A stretch of DNA of 64,000 bases from positions 1 through 64,000 of IMG/VR virus record IMGVR_UViG_3300031998_000009; one strand, given 5' to 3'. Both the position numbers and the translations under genes were made by a program. Under the pieces are notes generated by a model. It was not told where the DNA came from, did not search any database, and was given only the letters and a program-made list of their open reading frames with translations. The DNA comes from a virus (taxonomy: Duplodnaviria > Caudoviricetes). Below are positions 4,639-63,912 of the stretch, one piece after another. Position 1 is the stretch's first letter. Each line of letters opens with the position of its first letter.

Positions 4639-5646
4639 TTAATCTATCCCCTGCTCCTCAATACGGTTGTACATATCCTCAATATCGGATGGTTTATTTA
4701 GTGGATATGTAGCTTCATCTGAAATTCTACCATTTCGTTTATAGAACAAAGTTACTTCTATAATAAAATTATCTAAATCAACGTTCAGATCAATACAAGG
4801 TTCTGTAATACTGTCAGAATACCAGATTTTATTCCAAGAATTAGGTGTGTTATCAGGATTAGGTTCAAATCCTAGATCTTCTAACACATCTATATAATCC
4901 TGAAATTCAAATTCTTCTTTAATGAGCATAATATTACCTCCTTTATTTAATCTTCCTAAAACCATATTTTTATTCTCTTTTATGATGCTAAGAATTCCAT
5001 AATTATTTAGAAAGTCTTGTACTTCTTCTTCGTCGTAATCCCATTCCTCGGCTTCTTCGTAAAAATAGTCTAACCATTTGTCACCGTATTTTTTCCGGCA
5101 CTGTTTTAATAATTCAGGAAGTGTGTTTTTTATCGCTCCAGCAGATTCTAGTTTTTTATACAAATCTTTAAATATTCCAGTAGGGGTAAATTCATCAGAA
5201 AGTTGAGTAAATATGGTTCCTGTTGTTATAGGAGTTTCAATACTATAAAAACTAGAATTTTCATAATCCTCATAGTTTTTACCTGTCGGGATAAAGAATA
5301 ACCCTTTTATAAGATATTTTCTGAATCCATAATCGGAATAAACTTCTCCATCTGTATATCCGCAAGTAAATTTACCATCATTTCTGGCAAATTTGATATA
5401 CCCATCTAAATTTTTAACTACACCATAAAGATAATCACTGTCAAATAAATCTAATGCCATGCCTCTATGAGTATTTTCTAAAGCATCACAAATAACCCAA
5501 ATATCAAAATGACTATCATAAAGTATTCTGTAGGGCTTTGGCTTATTTAGAATCCAATTTACAATATCGCCAACATAATCAGTGGCATAACAACCTTCAG
5601 AAATATTTTCAAGTTTTTCATCTAGTATATTTAGTTTTATTGACAT
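4639..5646 (-). CDS. LxE-leader protein, putative internal head protein; contains an in-frame internal start at 4929
   Basis: N-terminus MSIKLNILDEKLENISE. Paralog of 58645..59196 (TDYxGDIxNxxxNKPKxYRILYD). Internal AGGAGG plus ATG (MLIKEE). Confidence 0.6.
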   Translation of the reverse strand: MSIKLNILDEKLENISEGCYATDYVGDIVNWILNKPKPYRILYDSHFDIWVICDALENTHRGMALDLFDSDYLYGVVKNLDGYIKFARNDGKFTCGYTDGEVYSDYGFRKYLIKGLFFIPTGKNYEDYENSSFYSIETPITTGTIFTQLSDEFTPTGIFKDLYKKLESAGAIKNTLPELLKQCRKKYGDKWLDYFYEEAEEWDYDEEEVQDFLNNYGILSIIKENKNMVLGRLNKGGNIMLIKEEFEFQDYIDVLEDLGFEPNPDNTPNSWNKIWYSDSITEPCIDLNVDLDNFIIEVTLFYKRNGRISDEATYPLNKPSDIEDMYNRIEEQGID

Positions 5647-5652
5647 AAAACA

Positions 5653-6366
5653 TCACCACTTTACTCTCGTAAAGTTTACCTTTGCCTCATTGTCTAGGTT
5701 TACAGCATCGTTAAAATCGGCAATACATTCTAAATCTTCTGGAACGTCAACAGAACCATTTTCATCTACGGCTTCAACAGTTCCAAACTTTTTATCAACA
5801 ATAACTACCATTCCAGATGGATAAACTTTAGTTATAATGTTTTCTTCGTCGTCATCCTCGTAACCAAGTTCTTTTAACTTTCTGTATCCGGATAATTTGT
5901 AGAACGGTTTAATATCTACTCCTGGTTTTCTATCTTCTTCTAGTGTAGAATCAAAATCATCGAATTCTTCTTCATCCACATCATAGTAATCATCCTCATC
6001 AAACTCTTCATCATCTTCTTCATTCCAGGAAGTAGCTCTAATAGAAGAAGCCCAATCATCTACCTTATACACATCTTCAGGAGTTCGGATTCTTTTAACA
6101 CCAGAAATATTAAAGGCATCAGAAGTAGGAACATCATGTACATATTCAGTAACTTCTATTTCTCCGGTATATGGATAAATATTTACTTCCCAATTTACAT
6201 CTTTTTTAGATGTTCTATCAAAATAATCTTTGCTATAACTAATATGCTCTTTGGGCAACCCATTTTTAAAATGGGAAGTTACTAAATCTCTAAAACCTCT
6301 TTCTTCCAATGCTTTGATAATTGAATCTGTACTTGCTATTGCCATTTCATTTATTCTGAGTTTCAT
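5653..6366 (-). CDS. LxE-leader acidic protein, putative internal head protein
   Basis: N-terminus MKLRINE-MA; acidic linker ending TLEE. Confidence 0.55.
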   Translation of the reverse strand: MKLRINEMAIASTDSIIKALEERGFRDLVTSHFKNGLPKEHISYSKDYFDRTSKKDVNWEVNIYPYTGEIEVTEYVHDVPTSDAFNISGVKRIRTPEDVYKVDDWASSIRATSWNEEDDEEFDEDDYYDVDEEEFDDFDSTLEEDRKPGVDIKPFYKLSGYRKLKELGYEDDDEENIITKVYPSGMVVIVDKKFGTVEAVDENGSVDVPEDLECIADFNDAVNLDNEAKVNFTRVKW

Positions 6367-6375
6367 AATAAAAAC

Positions 6376-6500
6376 ATCTCCTTCAAAAATATGTCAATTT
6401 GGTTATTCTTACCCTCAAAAAATATGTATAAATCATGTTTTCAACTATCGAAAACTGTGTCTAAAGGGTTCAAATAACCCATAAATATAATGTAGGAGAT
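6376..6500 (-). promoter_or_regulatory. Long imperfect hairpin covering the RBS of 5653..6366
   Basis: Nested inverted repeats ATCTCCT/AGGAGAT, GGTTATT/AATAACC, ACCCT/AGGGT, GTTTTC/GAAAAC. The outer stem includes the SD. Confidence 0.5.
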
Positions 6501-6535
6501 AATAGTTTATGTATTTATTTAGAATTGATAAATTA

Positions 6536-6796
6536 TTAAATTTCTAAATTCTGATATCTTTCTATTTCTTTTTGTAGTTTTTGTATTCTTTCATATTTAT
6601 GATACATTCTACAAAAACTTCTAGATCGTTCTCCTTTTATTTTTGTATATTCAGGAGTTCCTTTTTTAAGACCTAGAAGTCTAGGAAGTTTTTCTATATA
6701 TTCCTGGTCTTGTTTTATTCCGTTATTTAGTTCTTCTATTTCTTGGTTTATTTTATCTATATAGAATTGTTTGTTGAACATTTTGAATTGATCCAA
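6536..6796 (-). CDS. Hypothetical coiled-coil protein
   Basis: 86 aa ORF in a tightly packed operon. Confidence 0.5.
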   Translation of the reverse strand: MDQFKMFNKQFYIDKINQEIEELNNGIKQDQEYIEKLPRLLGLKKGTPEYTKIKGERSRSFCRMYHKYERIQKLQKEIERYQNLEI

Positions 6797-6797
6797 A

Positions 6798-7094
6798 TTA
6801 TTCTTCCCCTTCCAAACAAACTATCTTATATTCTATCTCATACACGGAACCATGTGGAAAATTTTCTTTTAAAATATTTATAACTCTTTGAGCATATCCT
6901 GTAGATTTATAAGCATATTTACTTACATAGAATGATGTTTTTGTTCTATCCAGATATGTCTTAAAAGAACCATTTTCTTGCATAAGTTCTTTTCGCATAA
7001 GATATGAATTCTTACCTAGGAGTTTTCTCTCTACTTCTCCAGTAACTTTATTTTTGAATGTTTGTTCAATATAGAATCTATCCACATTTGTCAC
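6798..7094 (-). CDS. Hypothetical protein
   Basis: 98 aa ORF overlapping the upstream stop; RBS present. Confidence 0.55.
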   Translation of the reverse strand: MTNVDRFYIEQTFKNKVTGEVERKLLGKNSYLMRKELMQENGSFKTYLDRTKTSFYVSKYAYKSTGYAQRVINILKENFPHGSVYEIEYKIVCLEGEE

Positions 7095-61851: not shown

Positions 61852-61869
61852 AATAACAACTCCTTTTTC

Positions 61870-63209
61870 TTATCTATCAAATGTTTCTGTTACTGTTCCA
61901 GTTTCATAATAAGTATTGACCCGAAGCCAACCATTATATTGAGCTGTCTCTGTTTGGTAGTAATGACCTTCTTCGTCTTTTCCTTCCGAAACAATAACAG
62001 ATTCACCTACTTTATTCTCACCCATAAGAGGTAATTGTTTGTTCTTTACCAGTTCTTTCATTTCTTCATAACTCATAACTTTTTCTCCTTTTTAAAAATT
62101 ACAGCTTTTCAATTCTTCCCTTACCATAACCTGGTGTATCCGAAACCGAATAACCGTTCATAAGGTAAAAGCCTCCATTGTCAAGACGAATCCTACCTGT
62201 AGGTGTGATTCTGATAATCTTACGCTTACCAAGATACTCACCGTAAGCGTTATATTCACGAACAATATCTCCCACGTTGAACTTTGTTGTGTTTGTCATA
62301 AATAGGACCTCCTTCTCAAATCAAACATTTTACGAGTTCATCAATCTTGGAATTTACTTTATCGAGCTTATCCTTGAATTTTTTATCACCGGTTAATTCA
62401 TATCCATCTTCCAGTGAATCCCTTTCGTTTGATAAACGTATGATTTTCTTTTTTATCTTTTCCTGTTCTTTAAGGGTTTCTTCCCATTGTTCTGGAGTCA
62501 TGCCCGTAGGCATCCTTAAAAAATCTTTAATTGTCATTTTATACACCAGCACTTTCACTTGTAAAGGTTTTAACAACGGCATTAAATGTTCCATGCCAAA
62601 TATCTCTTCCAGAATTAAGATAAGCATCTGCAAGTACATCCTCAACTGTTCTGTTATCCCTATTGGCAATATCCTTTGCTAGAACCTCACACATAGCCGA
62701 TAAGGTTTTCATGTAAGAATTTCTTTCAATATCATTCAGGAATACTGTCTCGTCATTAAACTGTAACATAGTAACCTCCATCAATATTTTTATATTTCAT
62801 CAATAAACTTTTTAGCAAGTCTTTTGTGTGTTTCAAAAGAAATGTCTACAACTTTCTTGTAACAATCAGAATTTTGATATCTGTCAGTTTTCTTCAAATT
62901 ATTAAGACGTTCAAGTGTTTCTAAACACTCATCAAGATTTGTTTCTCTACACACCATAATCACCACTCCTCCTTAAAATTCAACACCGTAAAATTTACCG
63001 ATAGCTTCCCAAGTAACATAAATGTGCTCAAGCTCAAGCAGTTCTTTGAACTCCTCAAAATCGGAATCTGTAATTGCCATATTATGGTCAACTTTGTATC
63101 CAAGTGTGGCATCATTGATCTTTTTGAAAATGGGTTTAAGGTAGCTGTATCTACCATCAATGACCTGTTTTTGAATATCCGTGATTTTAATCATCACATT
63201 TACCTTCAT
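61870..63209 (-). CDS. Small early genes (61870..62076, 62099..62299, 62316..62537, 62539..62784, 62973..63209)
   Basis: RBS-preceded ORFs downstream of P16; 62973..63209 is a paralog of 21215..21460. Confidence 0.55.
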
Positions 63210-63251
63210 GGTATACCCCCTTAATCATTACACATCTTTCTTACTATATAT

Positions 63252-63280
63252 AGTATAACATATTTATAATAATTTGTCAA
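63252..63280 (-). promoter_or_regulatory. Early promoter P16
   Basis: TTGACA-17 bp-TATACT. Confidence 0.9.
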
Positions 63281-63307
63281 GTAGTTTCCTAAAATTTAGA
63301 TAATAAA

Positions 63308-63353
63308 AATCACACAAATATATCCTTGTTAGATATGGATATATTTGTGTGAT
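63308..63353 (-). terminator. Long hairpin upstream of P16
   Basis: ATCACACAAATATATCC/GGATATATTTGTGTGAT. Confidence 0.8.
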
Positions 63354-63381
63354 ATTACTAGACTATATTATAATTCTTATA

Positions 63382-63912
63382 TTATCTATTCTTACGATAT
63401 TTTCCTCTATTCATAGATTCAGCAAAATATTCACCGTCATCAATAGGAGTGGAATCATTAATGATGTCGTAAGCCCAATCATCCTGATTGTAAGCTCTGT
63501 CTATCCACTTTTGAGCAGGTTCAGCTTCTAACTCAGACACGTTTAAAAAGTAAATGTAGAGGTGTCTGCCGTCGTCGTCAGGATAAAAATAGAAAGTAAA
63601 TTCTGTTCCTCTTGGGATATACACATGACCATCTTCGGCAACCCAGAAATCCTCATTCTCGATTAGATCTGCAAGTAGATTATCCTGGATAAACCATTTG
63701 TATACCTCACTCTTAAGATCCAGATCGAAATCTTTATTTAACCTGTATGTCGTACTAAAATCTTTAGCATCTTTGGCATCAATACCGTTTCTTTGAATAC
63801 GAACAAGTTCATCCCAATCCACATAGGGTTTCTTCAAATTCTCTGTCAAACTACGACCACGGACTCTTCTTTGTTTACTTTCATTAGTATTAAGTCTTAA
63901 TCTCTTAATCAT
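63382..63912 (-). CDS. LxE-leader protein
   Basis: MIKRLRLNTNES..SLTE-NLKKP; RBS-supported start at 63912. Confidence 0.6.
   Translation of the reverse strand: MIKRLRLNTNESKQRRVRGRSLTENLKKPYVDWDELVRIQRNGIDAKDAKDFSTTYRLNKDFDLDLKSEVYKWFIQDNLLADLIENEDFWVAEDGHVYIPRGTEFTFYFYPDDDGRHLYIYFLNVSELEAEPAQKWIDRAYNQDDWAYDIINDSTPIDDGEYFAESMNRGKYRKNR

Follow-up and report, generated by a model that had tools for sequence, protein, structure and literature searches.

Short N-terminal leaders ending in Glu recur on many small proteins of a phage with a T4-type head and are candidate propeptides of its prohead protease

In the first 64 kb (64,000 nucleotides, hereafter the window) of a single 198,524-bp phage contig, IMG/VR record IMGVR_UViG_3300031998_000009, many small proteins begin with a similar short leader that ends in Glu. 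We extended the analysis to the whole genome, in which 308 genes were called, 299 of them on the minus strand. The gene sets of all genomes come from a simple in-house open reading frame (ORF) caller and are uncurated, and some starts will be wrong. The best-supported reading is that the leaders are capsid-addressing propeptides processed by a protease, and by analogy with T4 we consider this probable. The leader would be a propeptide of 5-13 residues, consisting of Met, often a basic residue, two hydrophobic positions and x-Glu, and would end in the h-x-E recognition site (h, hydrophobic position) of the phage's own gp21-type prohead protease. In the proposed pathway, modelled on the capsid-targeting sequence (CTS) of T4, the propeptide would dock its protein on the scaffold core, here one polypeptide with the protease, and the capsid shell would then close around this core. 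The protease would then cut the leader off after Glu, as it would cut the capsid protein, the scaffold and itself, and the mature protein would remain in the head with the DNA and could exit with the DNA at the next infection. Docking, cleavage, retention in the virion, ejection and a role in anti-defence or host takeover are steps that we infer from the T4 analogy.

The earlier note on this window, made from its letters alone, had called for a genuine gp21-type protease elsewhere in the genome, and such a protease was found. ORF 168632-170341 encodes a protein of 569 aa whose first 170 residues match Peptidase_S77 (PF03420; 46.2 bits against a cut-off of 27), with a coiled-coil region (161-477) fused behind this domain. 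The protease domain is 28% identical to T4 gp21, and its His motif GELDHP and Ser motif GVSSRG align with those of gp21. This protease-scaffold protein is encoded in a head module at 167-175 kb together with a T4-type portal (Portal_T4, PF07230, 1.6e-47 in Pfam) and a Gp23-type capsid protein (Gp23, PF07068, 1.4e-45), so the T4-type prohead set (gp20 portal, gp23 capsid protein, scaffold core) is present in the genome. The N-terminus of the protease reads MQVLIE...KLTE/S, and the capsid protein has ICE/ATN directly ahead of the conserved mature domain (here and below, a slash marks the proposed cut). By capsid protein, the closest cultured phages are Bacillus phage HSE3, Listeria phage LIS04 and Streptococcus phage GXN1 (37-39% identity), each of which likewise has its protease fused to the scaffold. 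Two stretches of the window, searched by megablast against 50,697 phage records, had no match. A complex prediction for protease residues 17-175 (four-row alignment) with residues 1-40 of the leader protein 59201-59875 scored 0.11, where the mark is 0.32, and so weighs neither for nor against binding.

Twenty leader N-termini had been listed for the window. All 20 read as listed, and a Shine-Dalgarno (SD) sequence stands at normal spacing before nearly all of them, but the one at 4929 is an internal ATG and not a separate gene. In the N-terminus at 63912, the first Glu falls in TNE rather than in h-x-E. The ATG at 4929 has its own strong site AAAGGAGG upstream and its own MLIKE/E motif; it could be the relic of a gene fusion, serve as an internal start, or mark a second protease site where two domains meet. 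We then counted the motif wherever it ended by residue 10 and took the expectation from its internal rate. The pattern h-x-h-x-E occurs in 39 proteins against 9.5 expected (P 6e-13, 308 genes). With D, K, Q or N in place of the final E, the enrichment is no more than 1.4-2.5-fold. A broad pattern (h-x-h-x-E or h-h-x-E) occurs in 55 of the 308 proteins, for which the internal rate predicts 17.3. A baseline built from N-terminal D/N/Q/K endings predicts about 25 of these 55, which leaves a surplus of about 30 proteins in the genome (P 3e-7); the share of the window is 23 observed, about 14 expected and about 9 surplus. The position of Glu peaks at residues 5 and 7. As controls, we ran the same caller on A511, Staphylococcus phage K, phiEF24C and Lb338-1, which are AT-rich myoviruses of Gram-positive hosts. 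No Peptidase_S77 was found in these four phages of similar G+C, and their surplus is -3.7 to +0.9. The Glu-leader surplus is 34, 16 and 15 in the related metagenomic genomes G003, G001 and G005, respectively. By our own count, therefore, the leader frequency does exceed what AT-rich N-termini would give, with a surplus that is specific to Glu, and the leader signal is real for the set as a whole.

The upstream DNA of leader genes is not conserved apart from the SD, and the Leu and Ile codons of the leaders vary synonymously, which indicates that the signal resides in the peptide. A shared cassette of promoter, ribosome-binding site (RBS) and start as the source of the common N-termini was rejected on these grounds. 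In BLAST, most leader carriers are singletons and a few fall into families of two to four. It can be argued that the leaders have no common function and that codon bias at AT-rich N-termini (Lys, Ile, Leu, Asn, Glu), paralogy within small families and a permissive motif produce the pattern. N-termini of the form h-x-h-x-polar are indeed enriched 1.1-1.9-fold in every phage tested, that baseline accounts for about half of the matches, and some carriers are paralogues. We nevertheless find this explanation very improbable, because it does not account for a Glu-specific surplus that is seen in four related genomes and in none of the controls, for codons that vary synonymously, for leaders that lie outside the folds, for sharp genome-specific tags on 16% of the genes of one relative, or for a change of the last residue across clades that affects leader families only. 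The latter three observations are described below. The DUF5758-like array lacks the leader, as the earlier note had said: five tandem paralogues (23464-26207) and one dispersed copy (44344-44946) all begin MIGYK(I/V/L)A, with no Glu leader.

The claim that a portable leader sits on many cargo domains is supported; the leaders lie outside the fold and are common to unrelated proteins. The GIFW...YYPRGRV family (54022-54450) has 371 homologues, mostly on large phage-like contigs. Of 120 homologues, 118 could be aligned at the N-terminus; most retain h-x-E seven residues ahead of GIFW, and it is missing in roughly a dozen to 20 of the 118. In the AlphaFold model of 54022-54450 (predicted local distance difference test score, pLDDT, 93.5), residues 1-8 lie outside the fold, which begins at residue 9. 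In that of 41684-42052 (pLDDT 91), residues 1-5 are coil and the first strand runs from Met6. We examined 46 homologues of 41684-42052 and located the junction between leader and domain in 43. All 43 leaders end in h-x-E, and they range from 5 to 24 aa and have no common sequence (e.g., MFLKE, MIPIME, MIIKEEQSLKE, MKLNINESKMLTE, MKLHIKEEREMVKLIKNPLNE). The leader is followed by Met-Ala-Lys/Arg-Ile/Val-Gly in 42 of the 43 and by Phe-Ala-Lys in one. One further homologue is leaderless and begins directly at the junction Met-Ala. A profile search with this domain gave 1,632 representatives (50% identity). The last leader residue (P1) is Glu in 71 of the 83 representatives (<50% identity) in which the junction could be placed, and four of the 83, which have the sister-clade tag MK[KR]x[LV], carry G or A there. 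In the window, four proteins (6366, 12419, 34973 and 42052) have the E/MA junction in common. From these sequences, the junction Met looks like the former start codon of a protein that was later given a 5' extension. We rejected an internal start at the junction Met, as no SD lies ahead of it and the open frame and h-x-E are kept in the 43 locatable homologues. A ribbon-helix-helix reading of MKLRIKE-type N-termini is not supported for the two modelled families, in which the leader is coil. A Sec or lipoprotein signal peptide, which has a hydrophobic core of >=10 residues after a basic N-terminus, does not fit, as the leaders have 5-13 residues with polar sequence after them. Some members of the 41684-type family have two to four tandem copies of the domain, in proteins of up to 1,262 aa. 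Others have long helical charged N-terminal extensions (e.g., MKKTIHLSENEF..., MKKIIRITEKEL...), always with L-x-E before MARIG.

Nine related genomes from IMG/VR were compared, and the phages fell into two types. In the E type (this phage, G003, G001, G005, LIS04, GXN1, HSE3 and T4), Glu stands ahead of the mature capsid domain (ICE, LAE, AME, MAE, LLE, LLE, MTE, LTE) and closes the xxVL[IT]E of the protease N-terminus. In the A type (G002, G006, G008, G009 and G010), the propeptide of the capsid protein lacks Glu and is basic, its site reads [IV][MT][AG]/ATNTSN, duplicated in some, and the protease N-termini are KVKS/A, KIKA/D, KILA/D, KVES/D and QIKN/K. In A-type genomes, many unrelated proteins start with MK[KR][LYV][IV][KR][AS]. 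About 48 of the 297 proteins of G008 (16% of genes) are tagged in this way (MK[KR]L[IV][KR][AS]), and in G006 a single stretch of 20 kb has 16 tagged genes out of 28. The enrichment of N-terminal h-[KRQ]-[AS] is 2.5-6.8-fold in the five A-type genomes, 0-1.5-fold in the eight E-type genomes and 0.5-1.5-fold in the controls. In all 7 comparisons of E type with A type, orthologs anchored at the junction have A, C, G or S where the E type has E. LNE/MAIINP becomes IFA/MAIINP; LFE/MA and LKE/MA become IFC/MA, IYG/MA, ILG/MA and IFG/MA (IYG/MA being the G008 ortholog of 41684-42052); INE/G and LNE/G become IKS/G and ISA/G; and IPE/S becomes IMA/E. In contrast, N-terminal h-x-E in proteins that one would not expect to be substrates retains Glu in A-type genomes, in the neck protein (5/5), in QueE (3/3) and in three further families. 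This contrast does not depend on the tree, because it is made within the same genomes. The sequences thus support that the last residue of the leader co-varies with the capsid site and the protease N-terminus across clades.

The flavour of the tag is specific to each genome, yet common to unrelated proteins within it. This phage and G003 use MKLxIxE and M[VI][KR][KR]L..E. G001 uses MIRVxE, with about 20 genes in one array, and GXN1 (vB_SagM-GXN1) uses MRL[VI][KR]LxE on proteins adjoining head genes; six GXN1 proteins start with this tag or with a shorter form of it. In G009, a small head-module protein has gained a tag, MKKRYIRSAELENS, and its orthologs in four relatives are untagged. Judged from sequence, genome-specific flavours are what a signal read by a co-evolving partner should show. 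We propose tentatively, as a statement somewhat more easily wrong than right, that a clade of uncultured phages with T4-type heads devotes 10-16% of its genes to capsid-loaded cargo with a 5-13-residue tag that co-evolves with the protease, and that one branch has moved all of its substrates, namely the capsid protein, the protease and dozens of cargo proteins, from Glu to Ala, Ser or Gly. On this proposal, the tags would serve as an address code, readable and particular to each genome, for a large arsenal of delivered proteins that could not be recognised otherwise.

These comparisons also bear on the idea that the tag is an N-terminal degradation or timing signal of early proteins, read by a host AAA+ protease or a phage factor, with the likeness to gp21 sites being coincidental. 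Many carriers are in early operons, and Met-basic-hydrophobic N-termini resemble known ClpX N-terminal signals. In addition, Staphylococcus phage K, which lacks S77, has a small paralogous early family starting MIEIRLTED. Its members are proteins of the terminal repeats (NC_005880, 486-2015 and 140317-141846; loci L059 and L066) that begin MIEIRLTED, MIDIYLGEG and MIEIYLSEN, a possible counter-example to the leader pattern. Such a signal would not, however, explain why the capsid site, the protease N-terminus and the tags shift from Glu to Ala, Gly or Ser in the same genomes, why the junction before Met-Ala is invariant while the leader varies in length, or why tagged genes cluster beside head genes in GXN1 and G008. 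This idea is quite unlikely in our judgement.

The propeptide reading draws on what is known of T4. The T4 internal proteins reach the scaffolding core by means of MKTYQEFIAE, a propeptide of about 10 residues that gp21 then cuts off (PMC3012670, PMC5694885, PMC9026906). Alt loses six residues, with its cut at ITE-6, and the corresponding site of gp21 is LIE-9 (PMC5694885, PMC9026906); beyond the common CTS the internal proteins are highly diverse (PMC3012670). In our own gene call, the N-termini of processed T4 head proteins read MEGLIE (gp67), MLLIPE (gp68), ..LLIE (gp21), MLKE (gp22), ..LLRE/S (gp24) and MKTYQEFIAE (IPII and IPIII). Like the CTS of IPI, IPII and IPIII, the leaders described here are at the extreme N-terminus, end in h-x-E and sit on unrelated, fast-evolving small proteins of a phage with a gp20/gp21/gp23-type head. 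They also resemble the CTS in being portable between cargo domains (PMC3012670, PMC9026906). They differ from it in number, since T4 has three internal proteins and Alt, whereas here about 30 surplus carriers, or about 10% of genes, are spread genome-wide and are known from sequence only. They also differ in form and setting, as the consensus is MKLxIxE and M[VI][KR][KR]L..E, many leaders have two sites and many lie behind early promoters. Some relatives start with MKTYIKAME, which is near MKTYQEFIAE, or with MK[KR]YIK; these sequences are too short for a homology test. The gp21 substrates of T4 (Alt ITE-6, gp21 LIE-9, gp67 LIE-6, gp68 IPE-6, gp22 LKE-4) match the 5-7-residue leaders here, but they are conserved head or enzyme components, whereas the carriers here are ORFans without a Pfam or PHROG family.

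The T4 comparison also admits a reading in which the leader enters the prohead and is cut, but the cargo consists of core or scaffold parts, or of inactive proteins that are degraded or retained, with no role in the next host. In T4, core proteins that end up destroyed (gp67, gp68 and gp22) begin with this N-terminal pattern, and in the sister clade small tagged proteins occupy the position of T4 gp67 and gp68, flanked by the genes for portal and protease. Most carriers, however, are ORFans of 80-390 aa with a well-folded, globular structure that are dispersed over the accessory regions, and their fast turnover suits arms-race cargo better than core parts. We therefore hold this reading to be rather unlikely.

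Two other systems are similar in part. In phiKZ and SPN3US, propeptides are found on many head-internal proteins and have a short Glu-ended site (S/A/G-x-E), often several of them, and SPN3US has about 50 head proteins (PMC5694885). There, however, the propeptides mostly exceed 100 residues, only 8-19 proteins are processed and the protease is S80, not S77. To our knowledge, no switch of P1 away from Glu has been described in the phiKZ/SPN3US system. The internal-protein loci of T-even phages also place diverse cargo behind one conserved leader and are read as an anti-defence arsenal (PMC3012670); IPI of T4 blocks GmrSD and IPIII is needed on strain ECOR17 (PMC3012670; bioRxiv 10.1101/2022.04.14.488369). 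In the T-even phages, the diversity is spread across many phages at one locus, whereas here it is found in one genome at many loci. The phages studied here are uncultured, and their closest cultured relatives by capsid protein infect Firmicutes. The principle is known from T4. What appears to be new is the scale, the leaders that have two sites or vary in length ahead of a constant junction, and a change of the cleavage residue throughout a clade.

Several points weigh against interpreting the leaders as propeptides. First, the motif is short, and N-terminal composition alone predicts about 25 of the 55 matches; evident false positives are the sheath protein (MPQITVNE), the neck protein (MTLTE) and QueE (MKIVE). 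About one-third to one-half of the simple M-h-h-x-E cases could be chance, and any one short leader (MLDE, MTMLE, MALIE and similar) could still be a chance match. Second, the capsid cleavage site is a placement by alignment, and the known site of T4 lies about 10 residues upstream of the aligned ATN. Third, the split between Glu and small residues is a single phylogenetic event, so the co-variation rests on one event. Fourth, loading 30-50 different proteins in one head is far beyond anything shown for T4. Fifth, a literature search identified no virion-proteome study of relatives: no paper naming GXN1 came up, and none of the papers listed for LIS04 and HSE3 looked like such a study. Finally, 42052, 54450 and 58098 are first or second genes behind a strong early promoter, and this placement fits packaging less easily than late expression would. 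No late promoter could be defined in the genome; the T4 late motif TATAAATA is found upstream of 12 genes only, several times inside an early promoter. We count about 14-16 of the roughly 20 genes in the window as good candidates; the shortest single-site leaders may be chance.

About 30 near-identical sigma-A-type promoters, acTTGACtttttc-N-aTGTGTTATACTATAtat with an extended -10 (also TTGAC...TGTGTTATACTATA), are found genome-wide. Often preceded by a hairpin terminator, these early promoters break up the accessory regions into short units that look early. The leader block 60795-58645 follows a hairpin at 60892-60930, with 60538-60795 as its first gene and no early promoter there, and the leader genes 55886, 63912 and 6366 have long upstream gaps without an early promoter. 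A start region of a second type, in which GAAAGGA or AAGGAG precedes 8-11 bases with TTATT at their end and then ATG, is found at genes without an early promoter, including several leader and structural-module genes, and may mark another expression class. Table 1 lists these features, with examples of the promoters in the window, together with the leader genes.

Table 1. Leader genes, early promoters and start regions of the second type. Features lie in the window unless stated otherwise; a slash marks the proposed cut, and a hyphen within a leader separates its two sites.
Coordinates	Strand	Feature	Leader	Relatives and context
59201-59875	-	224-aa ORFan, core of MKLxIxE class	MKLRIKE/STSTKDPRK	Start and RBS; 2 homologues among 5.8 billion proteins, the full-length one (91% identical) retains the leader; no Pfam or PHROG match
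58645-59196	-	183-aa ORFan	MKLHIQE/R	Paralogue of 4639-5646 and 178674-179849 (MKLRIKE/S); L083 ortholog starts MKLRIQE
57553-58098	-	181-aa ORFan	MKLTISE/S	Paralogue of 84812-85354 (MIKLLHE/D); second in early-promoter unit, promoter at 58589-58561
55044-55886	-	280-aa ORFan	MKLQIRE/ALDSSIPSW	
5653-6366	-	237-aa ORFan	MKLRINE/MA	First ATG taken as start because no SD lies ahead of second Met
4639-5646	-	335-aa ORFan	MSIKLNILDE/K	In-frame internal ATG at 4929; no PDB relative, no usable ESM Atlas hit
41684-42052	-	122-aa protein	MFLKE/MAKIG	Best-documented case
34512-34973	-	153-aa protein, two-site	MIPLKNE-LFE/MA	Superfamily of 41684 and 11988; G008 ortholog IFC/MA; G001 (locus L088) relative MIEVSNEDFLFE/MA
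11988-12419	-	143-aa protein, two-site	MIKLLYE-ANPLNE/MAIINP	G009 ortholog MKKWINYSQPIFA/MAIINP, i.e. P1 Glu to Ala
54022-54450	-	142-aa protein, GIFW...YYPRGRV family	MLLTE/D	First gene behind early promoter
54583-55017	-	144-aa GIFW-family paralogue, two-site	MRLIVE-HNNFLKE/N	
59887-60123	-	78-aa ORFan	MVEKLKLRE/DD	
63382-63912	-	176-aa ORFan, M[IV][KR][KR]L...E[SG] class	MIKRLRLNTNE/S	Relatives just past the window start MVNRLNE/G, MVRKLRLSE/S, MVKRLNE/S, MIRRLNE/S; same class in G003: MVKKLRLDE/S, MVKKLRLSE/A
19795-20364	-	189-aa ORFan	MIHIINE-DMLFE/K	Paralogue of 21528-22121
21528-22130	-	ORFan of about 200 aa	VIKLIQLYE (GTG 22130) or MIQLYE/D (TTG 22121)	Start ambiguous; G003 ortholog of 21528-22121 starts MITLMNEDVLFE/K, close to 19795-20364 leader
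20796-21200	-	134-aa ORFan	MIKLIQDNFE-SLYE/H	Moderate case
22591-23367	-	258-aa ORFan	MILVNE/N	G003 ortholog (63% identical) MVLYYE/N
19528-19788	-	86-aa ORFan	MIILE/N	G003 ortholog MIILE/D
60538-60795	-	85-aa ORFan	MVKQVNE/A	Weaker, single hydrophobic position
7960-8090		Early promoter		
12761-12891		Early promoter		
19403-19527		Early promoter		
22496-22590		Early promoter		
31304-31442		Early promoter		
35798-35976		Early promoter		
38980-39136		Early promoter		
42053-42118		Early promoter		
46459-46563		Early promoter		
51913-51989		Early promoter		
54451-54582		Early promoter		
57391-57552		Early promoter		
58527-58644		Early promoter		
61291-61458		Early promoter		
63210-63381		Early promoter		
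6367-6390		Second start-region type		
55887-55910		Second start-region type		
58099-58120		Second start-region type		
63913-63935		Second start-region type		
64317		Second start-region type		Genome, outside window
68521		Second start-region type		Genome, outside window
77831		Second start-region type		Genome, outside window
130052		Second start-region type		Genome, outside window
166753		Second start-region type		Genome, outside window

The leader of 55044-55886 can be compared with that of a G001 protein, 47663-48523, which starts MAVYLIE/RLSSSIPDW and is encoded between the sheath and protease genes of G001. The likeness was seen by eye and does not reach 1e-5 in BLAST; in these two sequences, the leader differs and the start of the mature part looks conserved.

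The cargo itself resists identification. At E<=0.01, 1 of 20 leader proteins has a Pfam match (a sub-threshold TarH, 7.5e-4), compared with 6 of 10 leaderless neighbours, and weak PHROG matches were obtained for just two of the 20 leader proteins scanned. The label DUF4160-like, which the earlier note had given to part of the cargo, is not supported: 41684, 34512 and 11988 have no Pfam match at E<=0.01, and the 46 homologues have no precomputed Pfam domain. A sequence search of the PDB with three carriers gave nothing below E 0.01, Foldseek with both AlphaFold models gave no match at E<=0.001, and a wide VIA-align search with the second model (m495331a7e6a0) reached Z 3.7 at most. The modelled cargo folds are thus without a match among solved structures, which does not show that the folds are new. 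The carriers turn over quickly between relatives. To call the cargo effectors is an extension from T4 IPI and IPIII, and they are best described as candidate effectors.

Some further features were observed in the window and in the head module. The accessory region of the window contains 7279-7749, with a sub-threshold AP2-domain match, and 14082-14858, with an HNH_3 match; from these matches, both are likely homing endonucleases. The leaderless protein 8336-9343 (335 aa) has DUF7666 (9e-29) and a DUF3060-like C-terminus. The capsid ORF 167364-168605 ends in ...DDYAVAA, and its G003 ortholog was called at only 283 aa. Three paralogues (64482-67175 and 166426-166752) start with M(G/L/A)YT(I/V)(T/S)ITN. 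One of them adjoins the capsid gene, and the other two lie amid M[VI][KR][KR]L-tagged genes at 64-68 kb, a region that may be part of the virion-associated set.

If the leaders are indeed propeptides, the leader together with the phage's own capsid maturation site would flag, from sequence alone, proteins of otherwise obscure function that travel in the capsid. Host defences encounter such proteins before any others, and anti-restriction factors are among them in T4. About 30 proteins would be flagged by the marker in this phage and up to 48 in a relative, almost none of which has a known domain, and screens for anti-defence or host-takeover activity could start from this focused list. Cleavage appears to have changed from Glu to a small residue across a whole substrate set, which bears on the co-evolution of proteases and their substrates. 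The leaders also suggest short tags with which foreign proteins could be brought into phages that infect Gram-positive bacteria.

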